Counted from the first letter of the stretch, positions 23,840 through 59,569 are shown. The stretch: 64,000 nucleotides of DNA from Nostoc sp. ATCC 43529 (GCA_003326205.1 LWTK01000058.1:2476-66475), one strand, 5' to 3'. Notes: generated by a model not told the origin, from the letters alone. Made by a program: numbers and translations.

Positions 23840-26800
23840 TTACCTCTCCACTAAATCTTTTTTGACATTTTTGAGAGCATTATCGATACGGGAATTCATG
23901 AGTTGAAAGTCCTGTAATGTTTCATCACTAATGTTACTTACTTGGGTTCTTCCTTCTTTGACATATAATAATATGTTGTCATTTTTATCTTTAACTAAGT
24001 AAATTTTGTCTTGAACTTTTGTAGCAATTTGGTATTTTTCTGTTTGTACTGACATAATGCCATTGATATCTTCCTGTCCAATGATTTTAACTAAACTTTG
24101 GGAAAGACTGGTCATTTCATTAATTTTTTCTAGCTCCTTAATATCTTGCTCCATTGCCTTAAAAGCGTTCTCAAGACTGATATTTTCTTTGATGTATAAA
24201 TCAGTTACCTCCTGAATTCTATTGAGATATGTTTCTGATTTACCGAGCTTTTCAGCTGCTACATACCAGTCTTGAAGATTTTGCACTGTATTAGCTTTCA
24301 TCCGCTCGATAATGCTATCCATCGCTCCAAACTGCTGTATTCTGGGTTGAGAAGGTGATGCAAGTGCTTGGTCAATATTTGGTTGTTGGCTTTGTTGTGG
24401 AGATAAAATGCTCTTGTCATTAGTAATAAATGGGTTATGTGATACTTGTGTATTGGAAGAAATAGTGTTGATATTAATTTTGATATTTTCTATAGGATTA
24501 AATACAGCGTATCCTTGGGAAGTTTGTTCTACTTTGTAGCCTTTTTCTTGAAGATAATTTTCAACTAATTGATCAGTTCCTTGTGCGTTTCCGACTATGA
24601 AAGAGCTTTTGGCTTCTATTGCCTTATTAAGTAACCGTTTGTAATGATTTTCAAAAGTTTGGGCGATTTGCTCGCTTGTCACTCCGCGCCACGGGCCAGA
24701 TCCGGATACCATAATGATGTCGTCTTTTGAGTAATTTCCAGTGTTGGCGCGTTCTCCCCATGCTTGCTCGTAATTCCGAGTGCTTGAAGGTGTTTCGGGG
24801 GGCGCAGCTGATTTACCGATAAACTGGGTAGCTATTTGTGCCATCGCAATATCTTTTTTCATGTGTTCAGCGACGGCGGCGTTTATCGGTTCGAGTTGGG
24901 ATAGTGGATTTGTCAGCGGGCGATCAGTCTGTTCGGACTTTTCCTGCTGGGTTTGTACTGTAGTTTGTTGTGACTTTTCAACTACATTGATATATGCTTC
25001 GCTGAGGGCTTGAATAAATGCGGATTCTTTACCTTTACCTTCCCACCTTTTATCCTGGGCGTTAGTTATGTTGGTGAGGCAGTGCGTTGTGGAGGACAGT
25101 CGCGTGGGCGGGTTTCCCGACTTGAGCCAACTGTCCGTTGGGGTTCCCCCCGTTGTAGCAACTGCCGTACAGTTTTCCAGCCACTCAGTTCCTCCGCGTT
25201 TAGCGATCGCCTCAGTTAGCCGCGGGTGTTGTTCGAGTTTAGCCTGAAGCACTTCTACCATTAGCTTGTATTCATCAGCCGATGGATGCAACTGCTTTTG
25301 GTGGTTAAATGCGTGTTCGGCGGATGCGTATGCTACTCCTTCAGGTTTTTGGACATGGTTCTCTACTCCATACTGTCCGGCGGGAGCTTCTGGATTATTA
25401 TTGACTGAAACTTGGTAATCGTTTTGTAGCTTGCCTTGTTCTTTTGCGAGTGCAGTAGCAAGACTGAGTGCTACTCCAAGCCCATCTTTGGAGTCAGGAC
25501 TGATATTTACTGGAGTTGCAGGTTGTTTTTGAATGGCTGGGAATGGAACAACTTTGCCATTGACATAATCCCCTAGCGGCTCCATGAATAAGCCATATAG
25601 CTGACTCTTACTCGCCTGGGTTTGGGTAAGTTCTTTCGGTGAATGCTTTTCCCATTTCGCCCACGCTTGCTGGTAACTTGGATCTTGAATCATTTCGGGG
25701 GTAATTTTGTATTGCTTACCCACCCGGAAAGCAACTTGCTCGCCGTTTTTACCTTGAGCGATCGCAATATCTCCCTCTTTGACACCATAAGTTTTGTGGT
25801 AGTCTACACCTCGGGTAGTGTGTATTCTACCGTGTCCCCGCATGGCATCGATAGTTGTATCAGCTGGTACTTTGGAAGGTTCGCCGTGCAGATGCAGCGA
25901 ATAAACCATTGGTACTGGTTTTCCAGATATAGTCGGGTTGTCTGGAATCTCAGGGTTAGCAGCGCGTGCGGCAGTGGAATTCCCGATGGCGATAATTTCT
26001 TCTACAGTTGGTTGGTTTAAAGGGTGTGAGGGTATGTTTCGGGTGGCTTCTCTGAGGCTGGTATAACTGCGCTCTACTTTAATTTCTCCCCCAGGTGTCC
26101 ACTCGTTAGTTTTGATGGTGAGGTCGCTGTTGCTTTGGACTATCGCACGAGGAGGTTGGTTTGAGGCGAGGAAGTTCTCAAATTTTTGGCGAACGCTGTT
26201 TTCTCTGCCCAGGTCATTTTTAATTGACCAGATGTTGATAGACCATCTGCCAGCCTCAGTATTGAGGGCAGCGTGTTCGTTCTTGCAGTTAAAGCGCGTT
26301 ACAGTACCGGACTCAAGTTTAAACTCTTGGTATTGTGCGTCCTGATTCTCCTCCCTAGTCCATGCCATTCGTTCCTTAGCGGCGCGATATCCCCAATCAG
26401 AATTTCCGATATTAATGCTGCGGGCTTCCGTTGTGGCATAGGAGTCATCGCGGTGGTAGTTGATGCCAGTGCCGGGGTTCTCGGAGTAAGTGACCAGCAC
26501 AATATCAGCATCAGGATATACTTGCTTGACAAGTTCCATTAACTTGTCGTCTTGTATCCCTGGCTTGAAGTCTTTATCCTTCAAATCCCATTTTGCACCG
26601 ACCCATGCGACTTGTCTTAGTAGTGCGTAGTTGGATTTATCGTTTTCAAGTATAGGTTTGAGGTGGGTTTCAAGGTGCGATCGCAATTGTTCTACTTTTT
26701 CCTCGCTTATCTTACCCAATATTTCGACAGCTTTGGTTTGATCGGCTTGACGCGAGTTTGGTAGTAATATTGCTTGGTTTTTAGTTTCTATTTTCGTTTT

Positions 26801-29800
26801 TTTTGATACTTGTACTTCAACTGAGTTTTGATAAATTTGTGAAATTCCTGCAACTGTGGCATTAATACCTGATTGAATGTTAGTTATATTCTTTTCTGGT
26901 ACAGCTTTTGCAGGAATAATTAGTACTGGAGAATCTTCTTGATTAAGCTCTCTGGGACGGTTAGGTAGTGCTTGTAGAGCTTTTTTGTACTCACTATTTT
27001 CTGGAATTTGGTTTAATTCTAAACGACTACCTTCAGTCGCAATTTTTTGATTTAACTCTGCACTAAGCTGTTCATAGTGGTAAAATCCCTCAACTTCACC
27101 GATATTAATCGGTTCTCCAAGTAAACTATTTAATTCTTCGTTTATTTTTTCACTAATCTCATTTTTATTAAAAATAAATGTAGCTGTGTTACTCTCAATA
27201 AAATAATGATTTTCAGTAGATTTTGATTCTAGCCAAGTAGTTACAGCGATCGCGTCTTGTGCGGGAACAACTAATCCGAGAGCTTCTTTAGTTTCTATCT
27301 GCGATCCATCTGGAGAACTATATTGTTGGTTTGGGTTATAAAAATATACAGTTTGTTCTGGAATAATTGGAGTGGGTTGTGATGATGTATTTGCACTCTT
27401 GATATTACCACCAGCCCGGTCAATAAATGTTTGTTTTAATTCGCCACTCATGGTACTTTCATCGAGTACGAATACACTCATACCTTTTTTGGCTTCTAAC
27501 CGAGCTTGTGATCCGGTAAGCTGTTCGTATGATACTCCTACTTTTTCTAGATACTTTTTAGTTTTGTCGGCTATATTTTCGTCAACTGCTAATCCTAAAA
27601 GCCCTACTAATTTTTGTTCTTTATCTTGGAATATGATTGTAGGACGTTCATTAATTTTACCGAGTATTTGGTTACGTTTTTCTTGCTGTTCGTTTCTGAC
27701 AGACTTCTCATTACTGATAAGCTGACTGCGCTTAACCCATTTGTCGGGATACTCTACTGTTTCTGGATTAATAGTTATTTTACAGGTACTTTCATTACTG
27801 GTAATCTGTACAGGGATAGTAGTTCGTTGTTGGTTTAAGCGAATAATACCCGTATCAATTAGTTTTTGTACAGTGCTACTTTCTTTCCTTTGCCACTGTC
27901 TTTGTACATTCTCTCTATTTAACTCGGTTTCAAGGCGTTCACTATGCTGACCAATAATACCGAGTGATTGATCGCCAATTTTAGCAATATAAACGTGCTT
28001 TTTATCAAATGCCCGAACTAAAGTTTCTTTAAATGCTTGGTTGCTAATCTCCTGTTTTTTGTACTTTGGATTAGTAATATTAATTCGTAAAAAGTTTCCC
28101 TTAGATGTCTCTGCTATTGCATAGGCATTTTGTCCGGTGATGATGGTTTGAATTTTAAGCTGTAACTGTTGCCCATTACCGGGTTTTTCTGCTAGCCAAC
28201 CTTCAGCAATACCCTCTTTAATTGATTCCTTATCAATGTTGCCTAATTTCTCAGGTTTATTACCATTTTGAAGATAAATGCTATAGTCTTCCCGAATAAG
28301 GTCAACCTTTTCGATTGTTAACATTACAGGCTCATTATTGAACCTTTGGGAATTTCCAAACTTATTAACTTCACCTACTTTAAAGGTAAGTTCTGGAAGT
28401 CCGGGTACTTTGGTTGTAATAGAGGTGGTATATACTTCACCTTTTTCAACGCTGGCAATAGCAACACTACCAATTGGTAGTCTGGCGTTACTTTGTTCTA
28501 TATTTCCAAATGTTTCGTAATTACCTTCCTGGTTCTGGAGTTCAATGACACTTTTTCCATCTTCAGCTAGATTAAATCGAATATTTTGAGGTTTATTTTC
28601 ATGAAATAATTCACTACTCCTGTCGAAGCCAGTGATACTAAACTCGTTAAATCTGAGTGTGTCTAACTGACTGATAATCTCTTCAGAAAAGGCAGCAAAG
28701 GCGAAATTAGAAACTTTCTTTTGGTAATCGCTACTTTTATCACTACTACTCTCACGAGTAGTTGATACTGCCCAGGTAGCAGCTGCCATTGCTAGCTTTT
28801 GTCCTTCTGGAATTGAATTGTAAAATTCTTCTGCTATCTGGTAGGCTTTTTGGTAAAGAAGTTTAATTTGACCTTCGCTTAGTTCAGCTTGGAAGGCTAT
28901 TCTGTTAGACGTTACTTCCTGTCCAAGTCCAATTCCTATCTCTTCGGCTTTATTTTCTTGCTCCTTAGCAAGTGTTCCTAATGCCCTAAACTTGGGTTTG
29001 TTGTTCTCAGTTTCATCGTTAATTTGGGCATAAACTAGATATTTATGTGGGCGGTTACTGTTGCGCTTGTCTTCAGATATTTCTGATAGCTTGATTGTAA
29101 TTTTATTAGCTTTCCAGATAAATTCGTTGTCATACTGTAAAAGGTTAGTTACACTTACTTGATTGCCGTTAGCAAGGGTAATATTTGCAGACGGCCCTTT
29201 TTCAGTTTCTCTTTGTCTAGATAGCTGACTCGCTTGGTTAAAGGATTTGTCGAATTCTTTTTTGACAAGAGTAGCTATTAATCGCTGTTCGTTAGAAAAC
29301 TCGACACCTTTAAATAAAGCTTGAAATTGGGCGATTTCACGCGATTCGAGACGAGCTTTTTCAAAATACTGGTTGGTTTGAGCAATTAGTAATTCAACAG
29401 GCGAGTATCCCGTGGGTTGAATTGTATTGTCAATATAAACGTCTTTCTTCTTATCCTTAATATAGTTAACCTCCCGGTGGAGAATCCGATTGTTGTTGCG
29501 GATAATTTCCATTTCGGGTTTTTTGGCACTTTTGAAGAGGTCAACTGCAATTTGGTTTTGAAATGCTGCCTCGGCAATCATTTCGCGGTATATCTTGATG
29601 TTAGTATTCATTGCCACCAGTGCATTGACCTGGTTTAGGGATTCTTGCTGAACAGTTTTGATAAACTCTTCCATGTAACCGCGATACTTGGTCGGAATCT
29701 CCTTCCCTTCAATACCCTTGGATTTTGCCCAGGCTTCTGTTTTAAATAAATCTTCGTAGTGTTTGGCTACCTGCTGTACGTACTCAATTTGGTCTTTTTC

Positions 29801-31714
29801 ACTACCAAAGTTTTTCAGGATAGTAATTTCTGACTCTAACGCCTCAATTGAGGTCAGGTGATTGTTGATAACACCGACACTAATGCCATCGCTCATGTGG
29901 ATGGCGATTTCTTCAAATTCCGGCTGACTGCCATCTTCCTGGTAAAAAGATTGTTTTTTGAGTTTAACAGTTGGATCGTAAGCGTTTTCAGGCAGGTTGC
30001 GCTCCCTTGCCTCGGCAGTGAGGTTTGGATACCTGCTTGCCCGCTCAAAGCCAATACAATCACCATCGTAGTCGCGTGCTTGACGCTCTTGTTCGGACTC
30101 TTGAGGAAGAATTTCTAGCTCGTAACCAGCCGATTGTAGTTCTGAAATATACTGATTAAATTTGTTGGTAAACTCGATTTTGTCTTTAGTTTCGAGCTTG
30201 CCGATGTTTTTATATAAGTAATTTTCAATACCTTCTAATTGAATATTTTTACTTTGGGCTTCGGGTAGGGCAGATTTAATTTGCTCGTTTAGACGGTTAT
30301 AAATGCGATCGCTTGTTTCGTCTGAGACAGCGATCGCACCCGCGAGAGGTTGACCATCAGGCCCAAGGATGTCTTCTACAATTTTGTTAGTTGAGACGCA
30401 CAGACCATTTGAGTTGAGGAAAGGGGAGCGGAAGTTGAGAACTTCTTCCCCATCTTGATAATGCGGGATGGAGATTTCCCCATTTTGTAGGTCTTTAGAG
30501 GGAATCACCATTGCCCGCTCAAATGTGAGCGTCTTGCCGATGGCGATTTCTTTCCACTCGTTTTGAACGAACCGGGCCAGTTCGCGCTGTACTTTCTCAG
30601 TTTCGAGAAGTTGACCTTCTCCTTGCAGATCAGCTTTGATGAGTTTGTAAATAAATGAATCAGTAGCAATGCGATCGCCTACGGCGGGCGCTCCTGCGCC
30701 ATCGCGCAAAAGTTCTAAATCTTCTGCTACTGTTGGATCTTCTGCTGCTTGTTCTTCTAGTGTGGTTGCTTGTTCTTCAAGAAAAGCTTTCCGCTTCTCG
30801 TACTTTTCGCAGTAAAGTTGTGCAAGTTGCCGGGGGTCGTCCTGTACAACATTCAGCTTTTTGGCTTCAAGTTCTAGCTGTTCGGTAAAGTCTTTCAGCC
30901 CGTTAGGGAATGAAGCGAGTAACTGCGAGATAGCTGTTTTACCGAGTTCAGATTGTGATTTTTCACCTAGCCAGATATTTTGCCTGTACAGTCCAGGTTG
31001 AATTTGGGGCTTGCTTGGCCCATTAGGGTTGTCTTTATCAGTTCCCTTGAATGCAGATAAGGGAAGAATTAAGTCAATTCTAGTTGAGTTCTTGGGATCT
31101 GAATAATTGAGAATTTGGTCAAGGTTTGCAGGGCGTAGTGTACCTTTGCCAAAGCGGTATTTATTATCATCTCCGTCTTGGTCAGTCCAACCGAAGCGGT
31201 GTTGAATTACTCGATATTTATCACCTTTTTGATGCTTAGTTAATTCGTAATATAGGTCTGTGGATATTTGCCCGTAACAGTCTCCTGTTAGCTGATATGC
31301 TTGGTCATTACTAATAACGCCGCCATTCTCACCATTATTATCATCGACAATTAGAATATTTAACTCTTTCTTGACAGCATTTTGACATGAACCAAGAAAG
31401 ATAGACCCGTAAGCACCTCTATCTTTGTTATCAGGGCATAATTGTCTAATTGTATCTAGACATTCTTCTGGCCCATATAACAACCGAGTTTTTGATGATA
31501 ATAATAATTTATGACCTTCAGGATGATTAATTAATTGTTCCACAGTAGACTTTTCGTCTATATGCCCAAACGAAAAGTTTACCCCAGGAAAGAAATGTTC
31601 TAGTAAGGTATTATTAAGTTCTTCCTTTAACAGCGAATCTGGATTATTTGTATTACCATCTGTATGAATCCATTGATTTAATCTAGTGTCAAAATGTTTA
31701 GCTTGAATTGTCAT
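23840..31714 (-). CDS. 2624-aa multidomain protein: two-barrel (RdRP/YonO-like) RNA polymerase + AlkB-like 2OG-Fe(II) dioxygenase + ASCH-like + NADAR-like + SLOG-like domains
   Basis: Polymerase motifs GDCYGQIS (aa144-151), QHRFG (171), GKGTL (189), ILPLSAFKG, RSP (429) and DYDGD (548-552). Dioxygenase motifs H1754-x-D1756...H1814...R1823. Then GHGRIHTTR..KEGD; SAEHAF..MVEVLQAKLEQHPRL..DKRWEG; IMVSGS..FIVGNAQGTDQL. Confidence 0.75.
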   Translation of the reverse strand: MTIQAKHFDTRLNQWIHTDGNTNNPDSLLKEELNNTLLEHFFPGVNFSFGHIDEKSTVEQLINHPEGHKLLLSSKTRLLYGPEECLDTIRQLCPDNKDRGAYGSIFLGSCQNAVKKELNILIVDDNNGENGGVISNDQAYQLTGDCYGQISTDLYYELTKHQKGDKYRVIQHRFGWTDQDGDDNKYRFGKGTLRPANLDQILNYSDPKNSTRIDLILPLSAFKGTDKDNPNGPSKPQIQPGLYRQNIWLGEKSQSELGKTAISQLLASFPNGLKDFTEQLELEAKKLNVVQDDPRQLAQLYCEKYEKRKAFLEEQATTLEEQAAEDPTVAEDLELLRDGAGAPAVGDRIATDSFIYKLIKADLQGEGQLLETEKVQRELARFVQNEWKEIAIGKTLTFERAMVIPSKDLQNGEISIPHYQDGEEVLNFRSPFLNSNGLCVSTNKIVEDILGPDGQPLAGAIAVSDETSDRIYNRLNEQIKSALPEAQSKNIQLEGIENYLYKNIGKLETKDKIEFTNKFNQYISELQSAGYELEILPQESEQERQARDYDGDCIGFERASRYPNLTAEARERNLPENAYDPTVKLKKQSFYQEDGSQPEFEEIAIHMSDGISVGVINNHLTSIEALESEITILKNFGSEKDQIEYVQQVAKHYEDLFKTEAWAKSKGIEGKEIPTKYRGYMEEFIKTVQQESLNQVNALVAMNTNIKIYREMIAEAAFQNQIAVDLFKSAKKPEMEIIRNNNRILHREVNYIKDKKKDVYIDNTIQPTGYSPVELLIAQTNQYFEKARLESREIAQFQALFKGVEFSNEQRLIATLVKKEFDKSFNQASQLSRQRETEKGPSANITLANGNQVSVTNLLQYDNEFIWKANKITIKLSEISEDKRNSNRPHKYLVYAQINDETENNKPKFRALGTLAKEQENKAEEIGIGLGQEVTSNRIAFQAELSEGQIKLLYQKAYQIAEEFYNSIPEGQKLAMAAATWAVSTTRESSSDKSSDYQKKVSNFAFAAFSEEIISQLDTLRFNEFSITGFDRSSELFHENKPQNIRFNLAEDGKSVIELQNQEGNYETFGNIEQSNARLPIGSVAIASVEKGEVYTTSITTKVPGLPELTFKVGEVNKFGNSQRFNNEPVMLTIEKVDLIREDYSIYLQNGNKPEKLGNIDKESIKEGIAEGWLAEKPGNGQQLQLKIQTIITGQNAYAIAETSKGNFLRINITNPKYKKQEISNQAFKETLVRAFDKKHVYIAKIGDQSLGIIGQHSERLETELNRENVQRQWQRKESSTVQKLIDTGIIRLNQQRTTIPVQITSNESTCKITINPETVEYPDKWVKRSQLISNEKSVRNEQQEKRNQILGKINERPTIIFQDKEQKLVGLLGLAVDENIADKTKKYLEKVGVSYEQLTGSQARLEAKKGMSVFVLDESTMSGELKQTFIDRAGGNIKSANTSSQPTPIIPEQTVYFYNPNQQYSSPDGSQIETKEALGLVVPAQDAIAVTTWLESKSTENHYFIESNTATFIFNKNEISEKINEELNSLLGEPINIGEVEGFYHYEQLSAELNQKIATEGSRLELNQIPENSEYKKALQALPNRPRELNQEDSPVLIIPAKAVPEKNITNIQSGINATVAGISQIYQNSVEVQVSKKTKIETKNQAILLPNSRQADQTKAVEILGKISEEKVEQLRSHLETHLKPILENDKSNYALLRQVAWVGAKWDLKDKDFKPGIQDDKLMELVKQVYPDADIVLVTYSENPGTGINYHRDDSYATTEARSINIGNSDWGYRAAKERMAWTREENQDAQYQEFKLESGTVTRFNCKNEHAALNTEAGRWSINIWSIKNDLGRENSVRQKFENFLASNQPPRAIVQSNSDLTIKTNEWTPGGEIKVERSYTSLREATRNIPSHPLNQPTVEEIIAIGNSTAARAANPEIPDNPTISGKPVPMVYSLHLHGEPSKVPADTTIDAMRGHGRIHTTRGVDYHKTYGVKEGDIAIAQGKNGEQVAFRVGKQYKITPEMIQDPSYQQAWAKWEKHSPKELTQTQASKSQLYGLFMEPLGDYVNGKVVPFPAIQKQPATPVNISPDSKDGLGVALSLATALAKEQGKLQNDYQVSVNNNPEAPAGQYGVENHVQKPEGVAYASAEHAFNHQKQLHPSADEYKLMVEVLQAKLEQHPRLTEAIAKRGGTEWLENCTAVATTGGTPTDSWLKSGNPPTRLSSTTHCLTNITNAQDKRWEGKGKESAFIQALSEAYINVVEKSQQTTVQTQQEKSEQTDRPLTNPLSQLEPINAAVAEHMKKDIAMAQIATQFIGKSAAPPETPSSTRNYEQAWGERANTGNYSKDDIIMVSGSGPWRGVTSEQIAQTFENHYKRLLNKAIEAKSSFIVGNAQGTDQLVENYLQEKGYKVEQTSQGYAVFNPIENIKININTISSNTQVSHNPFITNDKSILSPQQSQQPNIDQALASPSQPRIQQFGAMDSIIERMKANTVQNLQDWYVAAEKLGKSETYLNRIQEVTDLYIKENISLENAFKAMEQDIKELEKINEMTSLSQSLVKIIGQEDINGIMSVQTEKYQIATKVQDKIYLVKDKNDNILLYVKEGRTQVSNISDETLQDFQLMNSRIDNALKNVKKDLVER
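25076..25169. repeat. Nested small dispersed repeats inserted in frame in the NADAR-like domain
   Basis: On the minus strand, ACGGCAGTTGCTACAACGGGGGGAACCCC...CAACGCACTGCCTC encloses a related unit (GACAGTTGGCTCAAGTCGGGAAACCCGCCCACGCGACTGTC). The segment is GC-rich against an AT-rich background. Confidence 0.65.
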
Positions 31715-32278
31715 ATATTAACAATTAAACTTATAAAATTAAATATAAATTTTTACTTTTTGGCACTAAAATACCCTTAAAGCTTGATTTTACTTTCTCT
31801 ATCTTGGTAATTTATTAAACAATTTTCTAATTTCCACTTGCAAAATAAATATAGTTTTTTATACACCAAAATATAGCTATTACTTAGAAGATAGCTTTTA
31901 AAGATATAATTCAGCGTGATCTCAAAATTTAAGTATGAAAAAAATATACAAACTTCTCAATTATTTCTTGCTTAATGCTAAATCAGTAGTAACATTCTTA
32001 ATGTTTGCCATTGTGCTGATGTTTGTAGTTTGAGAGAGAAAGCTAAATTAGCATGGCAGCAACTTGATAATTTTATGCCTCCCTAATTTTTTACTCTCCT
32101 GTAGTTTTTCAATTTTGAGTGTGTTTTTGGTTCTAGCTATTATTTTTATTTAAAATAACTAGAACAAAGTGGATTACTCTCTGTGACTGAATTGGGCATC
32201 ACTGTAGTTGGGTCGCAGTAGTACAGTGACACCTATATGGAGATCAAACTCATAAAGGAGAATTTAATTTTGTTTATA

Positions 32279-50026: not shown

Positions 50027-50037
50027 TTAATATTTTA

Positions 50038-50766: not shown

Positions 50767-51441
50767 TTATGAGAACAGTGATAATTGCTCCATCTGAATA
50801 TTACTTTCAGTTGTAGTTGCTTTAACAGGGTGTTTGTTCTTATTCGACAACCTTTTACCCCAACCTTCTTTCACCGCGTGTTTGACTATACGGGAACGGA
50901 TATCAGCAGCTAGGGTTTCATAATCAGAGCGGATTTTGTCATACTGAATTGGGGTTGTACCAATTTTCTCCCACAGTTTATCGTATTTGAAATTCTCAAA
51001 AGGTCTGTGCCTTACCAGGGCATCATAACTTGCCCAGAGGTAAACATCCGTCCATTCAGATGAAAGCGGCACTTCAAAAGCAATTGGCATCATAAGTGCA
51101 ACAACTTCGCTACTAGAGGCGAGTTTACCTACTTTTCCCTTGTCTATCTCTTCTAGCGCTGCATCTAATCTATCGACTGCGATCGCTTTTCCTACCCAGG
51201 ATGGAATTGACTGTTGCCAGCCGTTTTGCTGAGTTACAATTGGCCCGACGATGTATTGAACAATTTCACGACTTGCTCCTGCTAGATCGAGTAGACTGGC
51301 TGTTACAGCTTTGTTAATCCCTTGGCTGGTTAGTAGCTGAAGCATCTTTCTAGTGCTAGGAGTAAGAATTTCGCTAGCTTTTTGGCTTTTGCTGTTACGG
51401 ATGCTTTCTTCGACATCGAATAAGCTTTGCTGCTGGTTCAT
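50767..51441 (-). CDS. Hypothetical protein with beta-clamp-binding-like motifs at both ends
   Basis: Starts MNQQQSLFD and ends EQLSLFS; lies downstream of holB on the same strand. Confidence 0.7.
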   Translation of the reverse strand: MNQQQSLFDVEESIRNSKSQKASEILTPSTRKMLQLLTSQGINKAVTASLLDLAGASREIVQYIVGPIVTQQNGWQQSIPSWVGKAIAVDRLDAALEEIDKGKVGKLASSSEVVALMMPIAFEVPLSSEWTDVYLWASYDALVRHRPFENFKYDKLWEKIGTTPIQYDKIRSDYETLAADIRSRIVKHAVKEGWGKRLSNKNKHPVKATTTESNIQMEQLSLFS

Positions 51442-51462
51442 ATTCTTTATGTGTAAATAAAT

Positions 51463-51494
51463 ACTGCCAGCTAGAAATAGTTCTAACTGGCAGT
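51463..51494. terminator. Stem-loop between holB and 50767..51441
   Basis: ACTGCCAGCTAGAA-atag-TTCTAACTGGCAGT, 13/14 paired. Confidence 0.5.
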
Positions 51495-51519
51495 GCTTTT
51501 TGATAATGGGTGTGTTTTG

Positions 51520-52368
51520 CTATGGCAGAAGTAGGTTATCCCAAACGCTTCTAGGAGTAACGTGATGCAGCAATTGCTTCCTTGCTTGAGTAAATTTAGC
51601 TAGCAATTGAGTGTTTTTTAATTTCTGCCACCAGTCGTGTTGCAGGTAGGTAAGCAGCCATAATTGTGTCTCATGATTCCAGCTTGAGATGGAGTTACTC
51701 AAACTGAGTGCGTTGAGAATATCGTCAGGAGGCACTTCCAGTTGACTTGTGATTTCTTTTGAGATGGAAGCTAACATTGTGATGTTGGCGATCGCTTGAC
51801 CAGGACTGCCTGAACTCATAGCTAGTATTTTTTCTGTTACCTCGATTTGTTGGTCTTTCAGAACAGAAATAACCTCCTCATCAGTTAACCTTTGGAAAGG
51901 TATGATTTGACACCTACTCTTGATAGTGGGTAATAGCTTTTGAGGATAGGACGAGATCAGGATAAATGTTCCAGTTTTCGGTTCTTCCAGCGTCTTGAGA
52001 AGTTTGTTGGCGGCGGTAGGGTTGAGCATATCTGCTTCGTGGATAATCACCACCTTTTGCTTGGCCTTGACTGCACTAGTTGAAAGAAATTCAATTACCT
52101 CGCGCACCTGTTCTACTCGAATAGCAGGTATACCTTTCTGCTGGGAGGTGTTTTCGGGATGGGTTGGTTTGATTTGTAAGATGTCTAGATGGTTATTTTC
52201 TCCTGCGATCTCAGTGGCGATCGCCAGAGCAGTTTTTCCTTTCCCCACTCCCTCAATTTGACTGCTAAATAGGTATGCAGGAGCAATTTTATTCTGTTCG
52301 ATTGCTTCAGTCAGGAGAAGTTTGGCGGTATGCTGTCCGGTGATTTCTGTAAATGGGTTGTTTTTCAT
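51520..52368 (-). CDS. holB: DNA polymerase III clamp loader delta' subunit
   Basis: IAPAYLF, GVGKGKTA, IRVEQVRE, AANKLLKTLEEP, LLPTIKSRCQ. Confidence 0.88.
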   Translation of the reverse strand: MKNNPFTEITGQHTAKLLLTEAIEQNKIAPAYLFSSQIEGVGKGKTALAIATEIAGENNHLDILQIKPTHPENTSQQKGIPAIRVEQVREVIEFLSTSAVKAKQKVVIIHEADMLNPTAANKLLKTLEEPKTGTFILISSYPQKLLPTIKSRCQIIPFQRLTDEEVISVLKDQQIEVTEKILAMSSGSPGQAIANITMLASISKEITSQLEVPPDDILNALSLSNSISSWNHETQLWLLTYLQHDWWQKLKNTQLLAKFTQARKQLLHHVTPRSVWDNLLLP

Positions 52369-53324
52369 ATCGTAGAAATTTCAGCAATTCGACTGGTTAG
52401 GTTGTCAACTCCGCTTTTGAGTTCGGCTTCGAGTTGTACAAGTAAAGTAAGGCTGTTTTTAAGCTTTTGAACGCCTACAAACTTGACTTCATCTTTGAGG
52501 TAATACAATCTTTTGGGATTTTTCAGTTCTGCTATTTCTACAATCTTAGTATCAGATAATTTAGTTTCTATCCCAGCTTTGGTTATTAACCAAGTGCGGA
52601 AAATAGAGGTAAGTGTTGCTACTATTTTGAGCGGATGTTCATTATTATCTAGTAGTTTAGATACTTGCAATATTGCTAAAATGGGATGGTTTCTTAACAT
52701 AGCAATGGTAAGCTTTATATAGTCAGTATTATGATTCCCAACGAGCTGTTTTACTTCCTCAATAGAGATTATTTTTCCACTTGTATAAACAGCAAGTTTA
52801 GCGAATTCGCTATTGGCTCGTGCAGCGTTATTCCCAATTGCTTCAGCTAGGTAATCAGTGACATCTGGTGTGAGTTTAACTTGATGGATGGCTGCATACT
52901 TTCCTATCAAGTTAACTATCCCCTTTTTATCCCAACTAGGGACGAGGGTAAACTCTTCTTGTTGGGCATATTTTAGGATAGTTTTTACTACTGTTCTGCG
53001 CGAATCTGGCTTTTTGTTACCAGTAATTAGAAGAATATTGCTTGACGGTATTCGGGAAAGTTGATTTTCAAGTTCTTGGTTATTATCTTCATTTGATAAG
53101 CTTCCAATTAGAGAGTCGCTGTCTGTATGAATAATTTTGTTACCTTCTCCAAAGGGCAAAGTCATAACCTCGGTAAAGACTTTGGTAGCAATATTTTTCT
53201 CATTTCCAGATAGCTTAACGTAATTGAAAGCTCTCCATTGTGCATGAACATTTTGATTCACTAAATAATCAATTCTTTGATTGAGTGAGTAGCTATCTTC
53301 GCCGTAGTATAGGTATACAGTCAT
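52365..53324 (-). CDS. holA: DNA polymerase III clamp loader delta subunit
   Basis: VYLYYGEDSY, MTLPFGEG, KKPDSR, SEFAKLAVY, EHPLKIVATL; 4-bp overlap with holB. Confidence 0.85.
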   Translation of the reverse strand: MTVYLYYGEDSYSLNQRIDYLVNQNVHAQWRAFNYVKLSGNEKNIATKVFTEVMTLPFGEGNKIIHTDSDSLIGSLSNEDNNQELENQLSRIPSSNILLITGNKKPDSRRTVVKTILKYAQQEEFTLVPSWDKKGIVNLIGKYAAIHQVKLTPDVTDYLAEAIGNNAARANSEFAKLAVYTSGKIISIEEVKQLVGNHNTDYIKLTIAMLRNHPILAILQVSKLLDNNEHPLKIVATLTSIFRTWLITKAGIETKLSDTKIVEIAELKNPKRLYYLKDEVKFVGVQKLKNSLTLLVQLEAELKSGVDNLTSRIAEISTI

Positions 53325-53468
53325 GATAGATTAGATAAACATTTATTTATCAGGCGTTAGTCGTAAGCGGTGGTTTAAAAAAAGAAGAGTTAGTGTTAAC
53401 TCTTTCTATATCCTTAGTGTTTGTTATATAGCCGCTAGCAAAATATAGCGATCAGCAAATCCTTACAC

Positions 53469-54251
53469 TTAATTTTGTATTGGCTGTACTGACTTATGAT
53501 TTGAGACTTTCTCAACAGTATTTTCTACTGGTTGAGTACCCAAATATTTCCGCCAATAATCCAATTGTTGGAGATACTCTACGACTCCACTAGAACCAGT
53601 TACCTCATATAGCGCAATAGCTGTTTCCCACTCCTTTAAGCTAGCTTTTTTCTTGGAAAGAATTTTGACTATAGCTCCTGGAAGTTTAGTCTCTTTACCA
53701 GTATCTAAATTTAGGTGTGATAACCTTTCTAGTAATAGTTCTTCTTCTGATAAAGGAACACCACCATCTTCGATGTTTATAGTATGAAGTTGGGCACTAA
53801 TTCCTGATAGAGGAAGAGTATGCTGAATTAATTTTTTAACTTTCTTGGTTTTAGTATTCCTCCTTTTTGCTTTAACGATAACTGGGTTGTTTGGGTCTGC
53901 AACTTCGTAACACTGGGGAAGTTCTAGAGAAAGTTGACCTGTTAAGTGCCATGATGCAGTTCGTTTTTCTGGCGGGGTGATCCGGTACGAGAACTCAGCT
54001 GTTTTTCTTGCATCGCCAAATTTCCTTAATTTGACCCGCATCTTGTAGCTGATAATTCCTTGAATGTAGGTTTTTGGGTCTAATATTACTGGGTTTGTAT
54101 TTTCCCACCACTCAATTTCAACAACGCGATCGCCATCTAATTCATAGATATTTCTAACTCTGGCATTAGGATGAGATGCAAGGAATGAGTTCACCCAAGC
54201 CCTTTGTTTTTTATTAAGCCTGGGCTTGCGATATGAGGATTTATTTTTCAT
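53469..54251 (-). CDS. Basic hypothetical protein
   Basis: 260-aa Lys/Arg-rich ORF inside the replication cluster. Confidence 0.6.
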   Translation of the reverse strand: MKNKSSYRKPRLNKKQRAWVNSFLASHPNARVRNIYELDGDRVVEIEWWENTNPVILDPKTYIQGIISYKMRVKLRKFGDARKTAEFSYRITPPEKRTASWHLTGQLSLELPQCYEVADPNNPVIVKAKRRNTKTKKVKKLIQHTLPLSGISAQLHTINIEDGGVPLSEEELLLERLSHLNLDTGKETKLPGAIVKILSKKKASLKEWETAIALYEVTGSSGVVEYLQQLDYWRKYLGTQPVENTVEKVSNHKSVQPIQN

Positions 54252-54523
54252 TAGTTACTTTTCCAATTTAAGAATGACATCTCCATTAATACATCAATAA
54301 ATTAACGAACTTAATCAGTTAATTAATGACTGATACTGTTTTTACTAATTTGACTTTTAGCGATAATTTTTTGTTTGTATGAAGGACTGAAAATAGTTTA
54401 ACGAAAGCCGATTTTCTTGTAGGTATTTGTCATTATTTACCAATTGTTGATAATTCATGAATTTAAAAAAAGACTTGATATTTATTATTTTCATTGGTTA
54501 CGTTAAATATCAAGTTTGTTCAT

Positions 54524-56356
54524 CTAGAAAAGGGATAACTGACGTTTATTACCTTCTAGTATTTCAGGAGCGGCTATTTTGAGGATTTCTTCTCGCCTTT
54601 TTTCGATTAGGTCAAGATAGTATTGACGTGAATAGCTCTCATTTGTGCTGATATTAGTAATACCTCTGATTCCGTAATAGTAAATTACTACATCACCAGG
54701 CTTTCCTAATTTAAGAAGTTCTTTTTCCCCAACACGAATTTTGCGAGTAATGCAGAGTTTTTCTATCGGGTATTTTCCTGATAAAATCTGCGATTTTACT
54801 TCTCTGAAATATTCCTCTGCCGTAGATTGGTTTTGGATTAAGTAGGTTAGATATTCAACAGGGAATTCTTTCTCTAGCCTTGAGCGAGAACGGTTTCTCC
54901 AACTACCTTTGGGGATAATTCTGTTATCTTTCAGCCATAACAGATAGTTCTTAGTTCCCCTTTGCGGAATAAACATTGCATTGGCAATAAACTCTAATTT
55001 GACGGTTATCCCTTTGGGTAATTGAGACTGAAGTGTGGCATATACTTTTTCTGGGTTTGGATGAGTAAAGAACACCCCGTCAGTATCAACTTCTACAGGG
55101 GTTGCACCAGCTTGATTGATTACCTCAATCATGAATTGTAGGATGCGCCGACCGTAAGCTGTTACTAAGGCGGCTGCTTCCATATCGTTGAAGGCGAGTT
55201 CCGATGTTCCGAAGAACCCAAACTGAGAATTAGCTAAAACTTTGGTGGATTCTCTTTTTTCCTTGGCAACAATGTCTCCGGTGCTGGCAATTTGTTCCAA
55301 CCTTGATTTCTCATTTACCAAATATTGCAAGATGCTCAAGCCGATTCGCTTTGTATCCTTACGAGAGACAATTCCTTTCGACAATATGGTTTTGGGGTAC
55401 ATAGAACTGATATCGATGTATCCAACCTTTTTATATAGTCCTGGAATAGAGTAGGCTATTCCCCCTTGGAATTTATACTTACGGTCGGGTTTGGGTTTGT
55501 ATCCTGGATAGTGATGCGAGAATATTTGCTTCCACTTGGTGCCGTTACCAGCGAGGGCTAACTGCTGGAGGTTCATTCCCGGTACAACCAGTGCTTCATA
55601 GTGGTATGAGGGTACAAGTCTGTTAGCTATGAATTGCGTATCTTCCAAGTCGTAAATAAGATAATCCTTGATTTTCTGCCATCTCCTACTACCAGAACCG
55701 GCTTTCCAGCAGGCGAGAATTTCTTCATAGGGGAGAACCAGTCGCGCTTGCTTACGCAATCCCATTTCCAGTACCACCTGTTTAAGCGATCGCCCGTTAG
55801 TAAGTTCCTTGGCGACAAAATCCCACCTGAGAACGCAGATAAAGATATCTACGTGCAGGCAGTTGCGGATGAATACCTCCCGAATTTCCAGTGGTTCGCC
55901 GCGTACTTGGGCAGTTCGGATAGTGCGCTTCTTAGATGCAATTCTAAATGGATGAGGAATGCCGTGTAACTCGCAGCGGGTGATGAGAAACGGTAGGTCA
56001 AATTCTGTTCCATTGTAGGTGTAAATTACTTCTGGTTTGCTTGCTTCTATGTGTTTGAAAAACTCCAGGAGGATTTTGCTTTCGGCTTGATCCATAAAAA
56101 TGGCAATCTCTCCTATCTCCCTCATACAGCCAATTGCATAGATACGATTTTCTCTTGGATTTATCCCTGCCGTCTCAATATCGACTACCAGAGTTTTGAG
56201 CGTTCCGTAGGTCGGAATATTTACTGTGGGGTGCCACTCAGGTATTGGGGTAGTATCTGACCAGAATATGTCGAGTCTTTCCTCATCAACGATAATCTTA
56301 TTACCAGATTTGCTAATAAAATCTCGGTGGTTGTAATTCATAATCTCCAAAATCAA
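54524..56356 (-). CDS. Family-B DNA polymerase with 3'-5' exonuclease and a C-terminal beta-clamp motif
   Basis: Exo I VDIETAG, Exo II YNGTEFDLPFL, Exo III YLIYDLEDT; Pol motifs DISSMYP, KVLANSQFG, VDTDG; ends RQLSLF*. Confidence 0.88.
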   Translation of the reverse strand: MILEIMNYNHRDFISKSGNKIIVDEERLDIFWSDTTPIPEWHPTVNIPTYGTLKTLVVDIETAGINPRENRIYAIGCMREIGEIAIFMDQAESKILLEFFKHIEASKPEVIYTYNGTEFDLPFLITRCELHGIPHPFRIASKKRTIRTAQVRGEPLEIREVFIRNCLHVDIFICVLRWDFVAKELTNGRSLKQVVLEMGLRKQARLVLPYEEILACWKAGSGSRRWQKIKDYLIYDLEDTQFIANRLVPSYHYEALVVPGMNLQQLALAGNGTKWKQIFSHHYPGYKPKPDRKYKFQGGIAYSIPGLYKKVGYIDISSMYPKTILSKGIVSRKDTKRIGLSILQYLVNEKSRLEQIASTGDIVAKEKRESTKVLANSQFGFFGTSELAFNDMEAAALVTAYGRRILQFMIEVINQAGATPVEVDTDGVFFTHPNPEKVYATLQSQLPKGITVKLEFIANAMFIPQRGTKNYLLWLKDNRIIPKGSWRNRSRSRLEKEFPVEYLTYLIQNQSTAEEYFREVKSQILSGKYPIEKLCITRKIRVGEKELLKLGKPGDVVIYYYGIRGITNISTNESYSRQYYLDLIEKRREEILKIAAPEILEGNKRQLSLF

Positions 56357-56376
56357 TTATTGTTTTTTGGCATAAA

Positions 56377-56517
56377 TCAGCATTTTTTACCTTTGATAAT
56401 GCATGATTCGCCAAAACATTTGGAGCATCGCGGTAATTCATCAATATACGTATCGAAATCTGCGATCGCTGCTGGTAATTCAAGTCCTGTACGAAGGCTA
56501 ATTGCTGCAACTGGCAT
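56377..56517 (-). CDS. Possible 46-aa Cys-rich microprotein, not in the ORF track
   Basis: MPVAAISLRTGLELPAAIADFDTYIDELPRCSKCFGESCIIKGKKC*, ending just upstream of polB. Confidence 0.3.
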   Translation of the reverse strand: MPVAAISLRTGLELPAAIADFDTYIDELPRCSKCFGESCIIKGKKC

Positions 56518-56764
56518 AATTTTAATCGGATACTTCTAAAATGCCAGTTGTTAAATTTTGTTGTGGTATTACTTGATATCTTAATTTTTTGCTTCCCAGT
56601 CAGGATAGTCTTTATTAATATTGAGGCTTACTGCACAAGGTAGATATTGCTGTAGATGAAAGTGTATTATATTTAATGTAGTTTTTGAATAAGCCTGAAA
56701 AAATCTTTCCCCAAAGTTTTTATTGGGGAAAGTAAGTGCTTTTACAAAGTGACGAACATTTGAA

Positions 56765-58126
56765 TTAGGCAGTTTGTAATTGAGACTTCATCTGAAGCTC
56801 TTGTACCAGTTGTACCCACGCAGGTGCTTTTTTACCTTTAATGGGAGTAACATTGTTCCAATGCCTTTCGAGTTCAGATTGAGATAAATGTGGGAGTTGT
56901 TCTTTACCCCAATTGATAGCATCTTGGATTGTTTTCCAATTAGTCCAAGGTTGTTTTTCTTCTTTGATATTGGTTAACTCAATGAGTGTCGCTTCCAACC
57001 AAAGTTTAGCTGCCTCCGAGTCACGCATTAACTGTTGTCTTGACATTAACAGGGCAATACTTGCCTGAATCTGGGTTAGTTCCCACATCTGAGAAATAGT
57101 AACGAGTTCCTGCCAAGTGTCTTCCTCCAGTTGAGTAATTTGTCTATTATCAGGAGCAGTTTTAGCCACTAGCAGGTCTTTGAGAAACCCAGTTAAACTT
57201 GAGTATATGACGAATGGGTTTTTGCCATACTCAATTAAGTCTTGGAGGATTTGTAAGTTAGTTGTTACGTCTCCTTTAGCAAGGTTTTCTGTTAGGGTAA
57301 GTAGGTCATGTTCGGGAACGACACCTGATAATTCCCAAACCCAATTTGGTGTGATTTCATCTACTCCCAGGTTGCTCAATTGATCGAGCAATACAAGACA
57401 GTTGCGAATAAAACCTCCACAAGACTTGACGATCGCCCAAATACCAGGTGCGTTAATGTTGATGTTTTCATTCTGGGCAACTTTTGATAAATACTGAACA
57501 AGTGTTTCTAGTCCTACTCTCCTAAAATCAAACTTTTGACAGCGCGAGATGATAGTTTCAGGAACCTTGTGTATTTCAGTTGTGCAGAAGATGAAAACTA
57601 CATGACGGGGTGGATTTTCAATTGTCTTGAGGAGTGCTTGCCACGATTGACTGCTCAGGGCATGACATTCATCAATAATGAAAATTTTGTATCTTCCCTC
57701 AACTGCTGCAAACTGGGTAGTGGAAATTAACTCGCGGATTGTTTCTACCCCGCTATTGCTGGCAGCATCTAACTCAGTTACATCCAGTGAAGAAGAGGCT
57801 GTAATTCCCTTGCATGAATTGCATTCTCCGCAGGGCTTGGTTGTTGGCTCATCGGTTAACTGACAGTTAAGGGATTTAGCCATGATGCGGGCGGTGCTAG
57901 TCTTGCCTGTGCCTTTGGGGCCGTTAAATAGGTAGGCGGGTGCAATCTTCTGGAGTGCGATCGCCGTCCCTTGCGCGTCTCCTTTAGGAGAAGGCGGGCG
58001 TTTAGCGATCGCGGAGTCACTCCCTACTGGGAGTATCGCATTTATGAGAGTGCGGACGATATGTTCTTGCCCGATTACTTCACTAAGGGTCTGGGGACGG
58101 TATTTGAGATGTAGTGGTTGGTACAT
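56765..58126 (-). CDS. dnaX: DNA polymerase III gamma/tau clamp-loader ATPase
   Basis: LKYRPQTL, GPKGTGKTS, the PCGECNSC zinc module, ELDAASN, IIDECH, ETIISRCQ. Confidence 0.92.
   Translation of the reverse strand: MYQPLHLKYRPQTLSEVIGQEHIVRTLINAILPVGSDSAIAKRPPSPKGDAQGTAIALQKIAPAYLFNGPKGTGKTSTARIMAKSLNCQLTDEPTTKPCGECNSCKGITASSSLDVTELDAASNSGVETIRELISTTQFAAVEGRYKIFIIDECHALSSQSWQALLKTIENPPRHVVFIFCTTEIHKVPETIISRCQKFDFRRVGLETLVQYLSKVAQNENININAPGIWAIVKSCGGFIRNCLVLLDQLSNLGVDEITPNWVWELSGVVPEHDLLTLTENLAKGDVTTNLQILQDLIEYGKNPFVIYSSLTGFLKDLLVAKTAPDNRQITQLEEDTWQELVTISQMWELTQIQASIALLMSRQQLMRDSEAAKLWLEATLIELTNIKEEKQPWTNWKTIQDAINWGKEQLPHLSQSELERHWNNVTPIKGKKAPAWVQLVQELQMKSQLQTA
57957..58039. repeat. 75-bp in-frame insertion at a HIP1 site inside dnaX
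   Basis: NAI-[LPVGSDSAIAKRPPSPKGDAQGTAI]-ALQK. Two GCGATCGC copies plus a split ATCGC; internal hairpins ACTCCC..GGGAGT and TCTCCT..AGGAGA. Confidence 0.75.
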
Positions 58127-58192
58127 AATTTCGATGATAAACGAGTGTTTTATTTACTTCCTACCAGTGTGGTTGGTAGGAAGTTTGATTTT

Positions 58193-59569
58193 TTAGGCAG
58201 TCGCCGCTTCTTTTTTCGTTCGTGGCGATCGTGAGGTTGACTTCCCTTTGTTAGTATCTTTCGCTACTACCGTTGGCGTTTCTATTTGAGGAGTTTCACT
58301 ATCGTCTGTTGCCTGTGCCACATTTGCTACTTCTTCAGTACTAGACTCAGTTTGAGTGCTAACTTCTGTTACTTCTTCAGTACCAGGCTCACTTTGAGTG
58401 CTGACTTTCGCCTTTGTACTTTGGCTATTTACCTTTCCAAACCCCTGCTTGATTTCCACAGGCATTACCAGATACAACTGATTGAGCAGCCCTCCCATCG
58501 GGCAGACAATGACTGGTTGCGTGGGTTTGTTGCACCGCACCACGATTTCATCGGTACTGATATGCTTTAATCCTTCGATAAGGTAGTCGATGTTTAATCC
58601 AATACTGATGTTTTCTGAATTACTAGTTACCGATTTCATCAGTACCGAGTCAACTGCATCCCCAATATCAGTAGCTTCGGTGTATAGTGTTGCTTGTGTA
58701 GCTTCCAATTCCCAGAGGATTTTGACAACCTTTTGCTTGCGTTCGGCTAGATAACTTACCCGCTTCAGCGCGCTCTCAAATCCCTTGCGCTCTAATGTAA
58801 ATTCATACTCAAACGACCGGGGAATCAAGCTATTGATTTTGGGATATTCTCCCTCCAGAAGCCGGGAAATGAGCTTTGTATTGGGAAGGCTAAACTCGAT
58901 AGTTCTATCTGATAGAAGAATATTGCACACGCTCGTATCGGCGCTTTGAGAGAGAATTTTGTTTAACTCGCCAAGTGACTTACCTGGAACGGTGAAGTCG
59001 ATTGGGTCAGAATATTCGCTATCGAGTGTTCCTGTTACTAGCGCTAATTTGTGACTATTTGTACTAGCAGCTTGCCACTTGTTGGTATCAATTTTGAAGT
59101 TGACACCAGTTAAAACCAACTTTGTTTCGTCGCTGCTGGCGCAATAGAGCGTCCCTTCAAGTGCAGCTTGGAGTTTCTTGGCACTTAAGTTTATCTCTGT
59201 TGGATTTTCTGCCTTTGGAAGTGTTGGGAACTCGTCAGATTTTCCGCCAATTAGTCGGCACTTACCGCTATTGTGAGTAATTATGCAGGCTTGATTTTCT
59301 ACTTCTAGGGTAATTTCGCCTTTAACATTACTAACAGTATCAGTTAGTAGTTTGGCAGGGAGTGCTACCTGACCTGAAATTTCGACATTAGCGGTGGTTG
59401 TAGTGTGAATTGTGAGGTTAAGGTTTGTACCTGTTGCTGATACTATCCCGTCTTCATCTGCAATCAGTAAGATATTTCCTAAAATTGGGTCAGTGGGTTT
59501 AGGACTGATTGCGAGGTAAGCAGTTTCTAGAATTTCTGCGAGTTTAGATTGTTCAATGGTTAGTTTCAT
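58193..59569 (-). CDS. dnaN: DNA polymerase III beta sliding clamp with a long C-terminal tail
   Basis: SATGTNL, ASTNSHKLA, SRLLEGEYP, IGLNIDYL, YLVMPV; then ~85 low-complexity residues. Confidence 0.92.
   Translation of the reverse strand: MKLTIEQSKLAEILETAYLAISPKPTDPILGNILLIADEDGIVSATGTNLNLTIHTTTTANVEISGQVALPAKLLTDTVSNVKGEITLEVENQACIITHNSGKCRLIGGKSDEFPTLPKAENPTEINLSAKKLQAALEGTLYCASSDETKLVLTGVNFKIDTNKWQAASTNSHKLALVTGTLDSEYSDPIDFTVPGKSLGELNKILSQSADTSVCNILLSDRTIEFSLPNTKLISRLLEGEYPKINSLIPRSFEYEFTLERKGFESALKRVSYLAERKQKVVKILWELEATQATLYTEATDIGDAVDSVLMKSVTSNSENISIGLNIDYLIEGLKHISTDEIVVRCNKPTQPVIVCPMGGLLNQLYLVMPVEIKQGFGKVNSQSTKAKVSTQSEPGTEEVTEVSTQTESSTEEVANVAQATDDSETPQIETPTVVAKDTNKGKSTSRSPRTKKEAATA

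Follow-up and report, generated by a model that had tools for sequence, protein, structure and literature searches.

A stretch of 64,000 nucleotides (nt) from Nostoc sp. ATCC 43529, referred to here as the window, is part of a Nostoc-type megaplasmid and carries on its minus strand a gene for a giant protein of 2,624 amino acids (aa). Over this giant gene, the identity with plasmid pC052_E of Nostoc sp. C052 is about 95%. By its predicted structure, the giant protein is a single-chain double-psi beta-barrel (DPBB) RNA polymerase of the branch that comprises YonO and the cellular RNA-dependent RNA polymerases (RdRPs), and template-dependent polymerisation of nucleoside triphosphates is predicted as its activity. 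We assign the giant gene to the DNA-transfer backbone of cyanobacterial megaplasmids and not to the PolB replisome, which is encoded in the same window. The gene, its segments and its neighbours on the relaxase side are arranged as follows:

23062-23832, minus strand: open reading frame (ORF) of 256 aa, starting 7 nt past the stop codon of the giant gene, conserved in position
23840-31714, minus strand: giant gene, 2,624 aa, made up of an N-terminal two-barrel core, a middle that varies and a C-terminal domain that is conserved
23843-24397, minus strand: conserved C-terminal domain (aa 2440-2624) with a helical bundle, a five-stranded sheet and a terminal basic helix
24485-25933, minus strand: ASCH-like (aa 1928-2066), NADAR-like (aa about 2075-2260) and SLOG-like (aa about 2268-2410) blocks, tentative labels
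26105-26617, minus strand: putative AlkB-like Fe(II)/2-oxoglutarate dioxygenase (aa about 1700-1870), a tentative label from motif reading
27365-31714, minus strand: conserved polymerase core (aa 1-1450), common to all family members, delimited by BLAST ranges against 120 homologues
30035-30532, minus strand: second (beta'-like) barrel (aa about 395-560) with NFRSPFLNSNG (427-437) and the catalytic RQARDYDGDCIG (544-555)
30935-31417, minus strand: first (beta-like) barrel (aa about 100-260) with the invariant RFGKGT (187-192) and SFKG (221-224)
32881-34072, minus strand: two small ORFs of 225 and 122 aa, located between relaxase and giant gene
35210-36742, minus strand: MobA/VirD2-type (MOBP/Q) relaxase (PF03432, E 1.3e-20)
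36784-37218, minus strand: NikA/MobC-like relaxosome accessory gene (PF21983, E 2.3e-13)

An AlphaFold2 (AF2) model of aa 1-1200 (pLDDT 76.8, pTM 0.65) was compared with the PDB by Foldseek. The best matches, each with a probability of 1.00, were maize RDR2 (7w82, E 2.4e-6), Neurospora QDE-1 (7y7t_A, E 5.1e-6) and Arabidopsis RDR2 (7eu1_M, E 6.4e-6), followed by weaker matches to beta'/Rpb1 chains, the largest subunits of the multisubunit RNA polymerases (RNAPs). Among the viral structures of BFVD, a phage protein named 'RNA dependent RNA polymerase' matched the core model with an E of 1.9e-10. Residues K190, G191, K223 and G224 of the first barrel are invariant in alignments of 30 and of 18 sequences, and K190 and K223 may be equivalent to the beta-subunit lysines that contact substrate and RNA. 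In the second barrel, R429, P431, N434, D548, D550, G551 and D552 are invariant in the 30-sequence alignment; the DxDGD motif, which reads RDYDGDC at 547-553, is invariant in alignments of 9 and of 18 sequences as well. The original prediction, which was made from the DNA sequence and assigned a two-barrel polymerase to the giant gene, is borne out in this point by the predicted structure and the invariant DxDGD.

At full length, the giant protein matched no entry among Pfam, NCBIfam and the PDB sequences, and its fragments gave just a weak NADAR match in Pfam at E up to 1. A profile of the core, run against 1.84 billion representatives, retrieved only 294 clusters (50% identity) with an E of 0.001 or less. 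Every named one of the 246 homologues is cyanobacterial, and many are labelled plasmid-borne. The core was found by tblastn in 64 of 72,556 PLSDB plasmids (searched also for PolB, the primase-polymerase Prim-Pol, the relaxase and dnaN), and all 60 of those listed are cyanobacterial. In genome assemblies, 202 loci with the giant gene were retrieved, and the scans described below cover the best 80 of these, all of cyanobacterial origin; 56 of the 80 have a full 10-kb upstream flank.

The protein combines constant ends with an exchangeable interior. According to the BLAST ranges, aa 1 to about 1450 and the last approximately 180 residues are common to the 120 homologues, while the middle is variable. 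The C-terminal domain, which was modelled confidently by AF2 (pLDDT about 90), forms the extreme C-terminus in 108 of the 120, regardless of the internal modules. A similarity of this domain to the relaxase or to other plasmid ORFs would have pointed to a common export signal, but none was seen with any other ORF of the examined loci, including the relaxase. Among 18 homologues searched against Pfam, a cpYpsA-SLOG module is present in five, an RNase H-like module in three and a PIF1/RecD-like superfamily 1 (SF1) helicase in three; none of the three modules was found by Pfam in the giant protein of the window itself. The AlkB-like label was read from the sequence (HRD at 1754-1756, a later H, and RWSINIW); the module was recovered neither by Pfam nor by fold search, and UniRef gives the name 'Fe2OG dioxygenase domain-containing protein' to a homologue with 91% identity (P0009). 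The ASCH-, NADAR- and SLOG-like blocks shuffle independently across the homologues, the NADAR block being a weak Pfam match (E 0.049). For aa 1450-2624, AF2 gave a poor model (pLDDT 57, with confident islands only), and a PDB fold search with this C-terminal half returned only weak LAGLIDADG-like matches (E 0.027 or worse). An ORF occupies the position of the 256-aa downstream ORF in pC052_E, pCC7120beta and Chroococcidiopsis pCHRO.01, the counterpart in Chroococcidiopsis having no detectable similarity to it (E 6). The product could be a fast-evolving partner or a specificity subunit.

The YonO protein of the Bacillus prophage SPbeta and YonO-like proteins of firmicutes and cyanobacteria were reportedly treated by Iyer et al. 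in 2003, and YonO is, to our knowledge, the sole bacterial member with a known function. The cyanobacterial group counts as one of five YonO-like families; it was placed in 'main genomes' with no function assigned, and stress-specific transcription was proposed for it (PMC2919709; PMC5467207). Both YonO and the giant protein are single polypeptides with two double-psi beta-barrels and the DxDGD motif, lack most domains of the multisubunit RNAPs and are encoded on mobile elements. Unlike YonO, the giant protein is two to three times longer and has appended modules and a family-specific C-terminal domain; its gene lies on a megaplasmid beside relaxases, whereas that of YonO lies in a late operon of the prophage. 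With QDE-1 and RDR2 the giant protein has the two-barrel catalytic core and DxDGD in common (approximately 1,000-1,100 aligned columns), and the motif reads DYDGD in QDE-1. The identity is just 9-11% and the TM-scores are low (0.22-0.37), so that the core alone is common; in contrast to QDE-1 and RDR2, the giant gene is bacterial and plasmid-borne and has no link to RNA silencing. The giant protein further resembles the polyvalent proteins, which are likewise multidomain giants of mobile elements with a domain-shuffled effector region and genes close to transfer genes (Iyer et al. 2017, PMC5512222). None of the polyvalent signature domains (MuF, ArdC, SNF2, ART, Zn-peptidases, methylases) was found by Pfam in the giant protein or in the 18 homologues. 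The same paper describes polyvalent proteins as scarce in cyanobacteria and, for the terms searched, does not mention the DPBB domain (PMC5512222).

The placement of the giant gene in one block with a relaxase and a MobC gene, as originally predicted, was confirmed: both the relaxase and the NikA/MobC-like gene lie upstream on the same strand. Of the two small ORFs that separate relaxase and giant gene, the one of 225 aa shares 97% identity with the corresponding ORF of pC052_E, a closely related plasmid that carries type IV secretion system (T4SS) genes, VirB10 and a coupling protein. The 'TraL-like' genes of the same prediction exist as ORFs, but are only weakly ParA/CbiA-like P-loop proteins (19345-20262, E 6.6e-5, below the Pfam cut-off). 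The origin of transfer (oriT) is presumably located in 37219-38139; an oriT-like inverted repeat was looked for upstream of nikA, and just short AT-rich repeats were found there. The intergenic DNA at 37400-37660, upstream of nikA, also contains GC-rich hairpin-type repeats amid AT-rich DNA, e.g. CCGCCCCTTTCCACGGGCGGGCG, which could either belong to the oriT or represent repeat elements that are generic in Nostoc.

The association with relaxases extends across the family. In about 17 PLSDB plasmids, the giant gene is preceded at 1-6 kb by a homologue of the relaxase gene on the same strand; among them are plasmids of Chroococcidiopsis, Sphaerospermopsis and Anabaena cylindrica, in which the identity of the relaxase is just 36-39%. 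A Nostoc clade with shorter proteins (approximately 1,600-1,730 aa) has other neighbours, namely MobV in pCC7120alpha and pNLP1 and MobF in pNPUN01 and pNe_5; these relaxases are divergent and located 4-8 kb from the giant gene, with a ParM gene in between. The 80 genome loci were scanned with relaxase, ParM, DUF6753, response-regulator and replisome queries. A relaxase was found within 10 kb upstream in 46 of the 56 loci with a full flank (34 MOBP-type, 12 MobV and 1 MobF query matches, one locus matching two), with a median gap to the giant gene of approximately 4.1 kb. Annotated plasmids show the linkage too, at identities as low as 48%. Its recurrence with three relaxase families and in two gene orders speaks for a functional connection between the giant gene and DNA transfer. 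A family member with a MOBP-type relaxase 2 kb upstream is also encoded on the 11.4-Mb chromosome of Calothrix sp. PCC 7716 (AP025018.1, 7506710-7528935), which suggests an integrated conjugative element or plasmid.

The replication genes are located further to the right, and the block they form runs past the end of the window (assignments in the window by Pfam):

48227-59569, minus strand: PolB replisome block, from ssb through dnaN
48227-48610, minus strand: ssb
51520-52368, minus strand: holB-like gene
52365-53324, minus strand: holA
54524-56356, minus strand: polB
56765-58126, minus strand: dnaX
58193-59569, minus strand: dnaN
67289-68311 in window numbering (L002:5074-6096), minus strand: gene for a Prim-Pol/PriCT-2 protein of the archaeo-eukaryotic primase (AEP) type, 340 aa (PF09250, E 1.8e-25; PF08707, E 9.3e-24)
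Just beyond the Prim-Pol gene, outside the window: DEAD/Helicase_C/MZB helicase gene on the matching contig

The short PolB (610 aa) is devoid of the usual N-terminal domain, and its exonuclease and polymerase motifs are intact (DIE59, DISSMYP315, KVLANSQFG372, DTD424 and KNY469). Its best matches are primer-dependent archaeal-type PolBs. A self-priming PolB (piPolB or protein-primed), which might have dispensed with a primase, was rejected on the basis of these matches, and the presence of the Prim-Pol makes the question moot. Conserved ORFs of no assigned function are interspersed in the block at 53469-54251, 50767-51441 and 48848-50766.

Among the ORFs inside the window, no match to a TOPRIM or AEP primase family was obtained. 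The earlier statement that the replication cluster has no primase was nevertheless not confirmed, since the window cuts the block. The 222-kb contig JAUDRJ010000002.1 (GCA_030382115.1) agrees with window positions 52701-64000 at 11295 of 11300 bases, and on this contig the block continues in the same orientation via methyltransferase, ThiF, JAB and E2 genes to the Prim-Pol gene, which lies 3.3-4.3 kb past base 64000, co-directional and in one block with dnaN, dnaX and polB. The encoded protein shows DCD and SFH motifs and is 31-34% identical to proteins named CyRepA1-family replication proteins. An identical arrangement is present in pC052_E, where the gene is annotated 'bifunctional DNA primase/polymerase' and no further primase is annotated in bases 1-150000. 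The block (48227-64000 and L002:1184-6096), which includes the DUF5895 gene and recurs in 19 cyanobacterial plasmids, is thus a nearly complete plasmid-borne replisome, consisting of AEP primase, helicase, clamp, clamp loader, PolB and SSB. The original prediction had regarded an AEP primase elsewhere on the plasmid as incompatible with a role of the giant polymerase as primase of this replisome, and such a primase is encoded by the Prim-Pol/PriCT-2 gene, a member of the PolB block that lies 3.3 kb past the window.

The distribution across plasmids points in the same direction. PolB was found in 19 cyanobacterial PLSDB plasmids, in addition to distant matches on Deinococcus plasmids, and plasmid dnaN tracks the distribution of PolB. 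The co-occurrence that had been anticipated between the giant gene and the replication cluster was seen in one direction: all 19 PolB plasmids carry the giant gene, but 45 of the 64 giant-gene plasmids in PLSDB have no PolB, and PolB, Prim-Pol, DnaN, DnaX or SSB was found within 10 kb of the giant gene in none of the 80 genome loci. Where both are present, giant gene and polB are 19-165 kb apart (e.g. approximately 82 kb in pCC7120beta). The Prim-Pol orthologue is likewise present in 19 of the 19 PolB plasmids, at 6-15 kb from polB in 16 of them and at 23-46 kb in the remaining three. Given its presence on every PolB plasmid and the many giant-gene plasmids without PolB, Prim-Pol is the constant partner of the replisome, and the giant gene, as a backbone gene of wider distribution, is independent of PolB. 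On the Gloeothece verrucosa plasmid Cy782202 (L008:525-10582), a DUF5895-dnaN-dnaX-holA-holB'-ssb block without PolB adjoins a homologue of the giant polymerase fused to RNase H. Because of this block, the plasmid-borne clamp and clamp loader may not serve PolB alone.

The remaining parts of the window were assigned by Pfam as follows:

121-17177: metal and efflux cargo
19345-22561: two weak ParA-like P-loop ORFs; genes for a DUF6753 protein and for a response regulator of the LuxR type
39079-40327: TetR gene and CMD-family gene
40998-47183: partition genes, with two actin-like ParM/ALP genes flanking ParA and ParB
59650-64000: DUF5895 gene, DNA methyltransferase and start of an E2/JAB/ThiF cluster

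The cargo comprises an Nramp transporter, a heavy-metal P-type ATPase with two HMA domains, a CDF efflux protein and an RND pump with its adaptor, and in the same region a plasmid-borne sigma-70 gene of the group-1/2 type is located (6789-7829). The DUF6753 and response-regulator genes lie downstream of the giant gene in most of the genome loci and also in pCHRO.01 and pNLP1. Three partition systems are adjacent to each other: ALP/ParM (40998-42233), ParA-ParB (42881-44884) and a second ALP/ParM (46236-47183). The DNA methyltransferase (61342-62394, minus strand, 350 aa) matches with its C-terminal 220 residues the methyltransferase segments in giant phage proteins of 1,400-3,400 aa (PHROGs, E approximately 1e-52), which suggests that it shares this module with phage polyvalent proteins. 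Between the methyltransferase and Prim-Pol genes, a Prok-E2_D/JAB/ThiF(E1) ubiquitin-like conjugation cluster is encoded (62701-64000 and L002:7790-9938), the ThiF gene of which crosses the right edge of the window. A second, different set of E1, E2 and multiubiquitin genes is found in pC052_E, together with a gene pair for a nucleotidyltransferase and a SAVED-domain protein.

The fold with its DxDGD motif, the Prim-Pol in the PolB block, the linkage to relaxases and the architecture of fixed core and C-terminus with a swappable middle are very probably correct. As the best explanation of the whole, the giant protein would be a two-barrel RNA polymerase of the transfer module that acts in priming or early transcription on single-stranded DNA (ssDNA) generated by transfer, a reading which we consider plausible and only slightly short of probable. 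QDE-1 transcribes ssDNA, and QDE-1 and RDR2 begin RNA chains without a promoter on single-stranded templates. Because these are its closest structural relatives, we propose that the giant polymerase would likewise start RNA chains, promoter-free, on the single strand from relaxase-driven transfer. It would act in the recipient if exported via the T4SS, in which case the invariant C-terminal domain is a candidate recognition element and could be recognised by the coupling protein; alternatively, it would act on the strand that remains in the donor. The RNA product might be a primer for the synthesis of the complementary strand by any available DNA polymerase or might consist of early transcripts, and repair or processing of ssDNA and of RNA:DNA hybrids would fall to the appended modules. 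This ssDNA-acting mechanism is put forward more tentatively than the reading as a whole.

Priming by an RNA polymerase is known from other replicons, since M13 and the Frpo site of F are primed by the E. coli RNAP and the ColE1 primer is made by RNAP plus RNase H. For early transcription on incoming ssDNA, the virion RNA polymerase (vRNAP) of phage N4 is a functional model; this giant enzyme is delivered with the DNA and transcribes early genes from single-stranded hairpin promoters. The N4 vRNAP differs from the giant protein in its T7-like right-hand fold and in its delivery by the virion rather than by a T4SS. TraC of IncP (RP4) and Sog of IncI (ColIb) are, like the giant protein, very large and encoded in the transfer region near a relaxase, and the role proposed here, RNA synthesis on transferred ssDNA for establishment, is theirs. 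They possess an unrelated catalytic fold of the DnaG/TOPRIM type, and their transfer was demonstrated, whereas that of the giant protein is a proposal. No DnaG-type domain (zinc-binding and TOPRIM) was found in the giant protein by Pfam and NCBIfam, whole or in fragments, at E up to 1; one non-significant primase-related match was to the N-terminal domain of the T7 helicase-primase (E 0.069). The passage of the TraC and Sog primases into recipients is cited by Iyer et al. 2017 (PMC5512222). The relaxase neighbourhood, the promoter-free relatives, the RNase H and helicase modules and the fixed terminal domain are consistent with post-transfer establishment, and for these reasons we infer that it fits the evidence better than the alternatives that could be tested. 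In its complete form, i.e. as a relaxase-coupled and T4SS-exported establishment enzyme that primes the complementary strand or expresses early genes while its modules process the product, the giant polymerase is a possible but unlikely case.

Several points weigh against a function on transferred ssDNA. The proposal is built on sequence, a structure model and gene context. YonO transcribes the late genes of its phage as a processive, DNA-dependent enzyme (PMC5467207), a precedent that favours transcription over priming. In four RNA runs of the organism bearing the sequence, no reads were found over 19000-38500. The AlkB, ASCH, NADAR and SLOG assignments in the giant protein of the window are weak and stay tentative, owing to the poor model of the C-terminal half and the uninformative fold search. 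The 56 loci are related by descent, so that the relaxase counts are not phylogenetically independent, and the linkage could in part reflect a general clustering of backbone genes, as ParM and ParAB genes are also near. The orientation relative to the relaxase differs by clade (co-directional with MOBP, divergent with MobV and MobF), and therefore no one leading- or lagging-region logic fits. Finally, MOB-suite classifies 21 of the 64 plasmids with the giant gene as 'non-mobilizable'.

The main rival to a role in establishment is a YonO-like transcriptase that would serve plasmid-specific promoters on double-stranded DNA, e.g. those of transfer or establishment genes, independently of the host RNAP and its sigma factors. 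YonO does so for the late genes of SPbeta (PMC5467207), and plasmid-specific promoter recognition would fit the observation that co-resident plasmids each have their own copy (five in Nostoc sp. C052, two in PCC 7120). On the other hand, the fusions with RNase H and SF1 helicase suit the processing of RNA:DNA hybrids more than mRNA synthesis, neither a promoter nor a specificity factor emerged as a candidate, and the plasmid has its own sigma-70 gene for the host RNAP; taken together, we regard a transcriptase of this kind as unlikely, though a serious contender. The individual copies on co-resident plasmids would equally suit an RNA polymerase of vegetative replication that produces an R-loop or a primer transcript at the origin, as in ColE1 or T7. 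Such an enzyme would be in keeping with a backbone gene that is present on 64 megaplasmids and adjoins partition genes, and the RNase H fusions recall the maturation of the ColE1 primer. Origin priming is nevertheless improbable, as the tight and repeated association is with relaxases of three families and not with an identifiable rep or origin gene, and as the PolB plasmids already hold a Prim-Pol related to CyRepA1-family replication proteins.

That the top structural matches are RdRPs could also indicate an RNA-templated polymerase (a true RdRP) or another conflict effector, which would amplify or copy RNA and thereby act against host defence or competing elements. The architecture resembles that of the polyvalent conflict proteins of mobile elements (PMC5512222), and the related plasmid pC052_E is rich in genes for defence and anti-defence. 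QDE-1 itself, however, also copies ssDNA, no small-RNA machinery is linked to the giant gene, and the conserved linkage to relaxases would be left unexplained, which makes an RNA-templated or conflict function very improbable. Least probable is the role suggested by the original prediction, in which the giant polymerase was the missing primase of the PolB, clamp and clamp-loader replisome. In its favour, the giant gene is present on all PolB plasmids, the ORFs of the window gave no primase-family match, and PolB needs a primer, given its resemblance to primer-dependent archaeal-type enzymes. This role is not supported in view of the intact Prim-Pol just past the window, which accompanies PolB without exception, and of a giant gene that occurs mostly without PolB, is otherwise far away from it and is close to replisome genes in none of the genome loci.

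The enzyme class is an established one, and cyanobacterial members of it had been recognised before. The placement on megaplasmids beside relaxases, the modular polyvalent-like tails and the resulting hypothesis appear to be new, and no literature linking two-barrel polymerases with cyanobacterial conjugation was found. By the current view, YonO-like and RdRP-like polymerases split off at a time when the multisubunit RNAPs had yet to diversify. A cyanobacterial family earlier placed in 'main genomes' emerges as a relaxase-tied megaplasmid backbone gene with a polyvalent-style tail, and the hypothesis is testable in Anabaena/Nostoc PCC 7120, in which the alpha and beta plasmids each bear a copy (WP_010993977.1 on pCC7120beta). 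If the giant polymerase acts on transferred ssDNA, it would represent a new solution to plasmid establishment and, for enzymes of the QDE-1 type, a bacterial model of their activity on ssDNA templates. It would then be an analogue of TraC, Sog and the N4 virion RNA polymerase on an unrelated and very ancient fold, and a bacterial cousin of the eukaryotic RdRPs.

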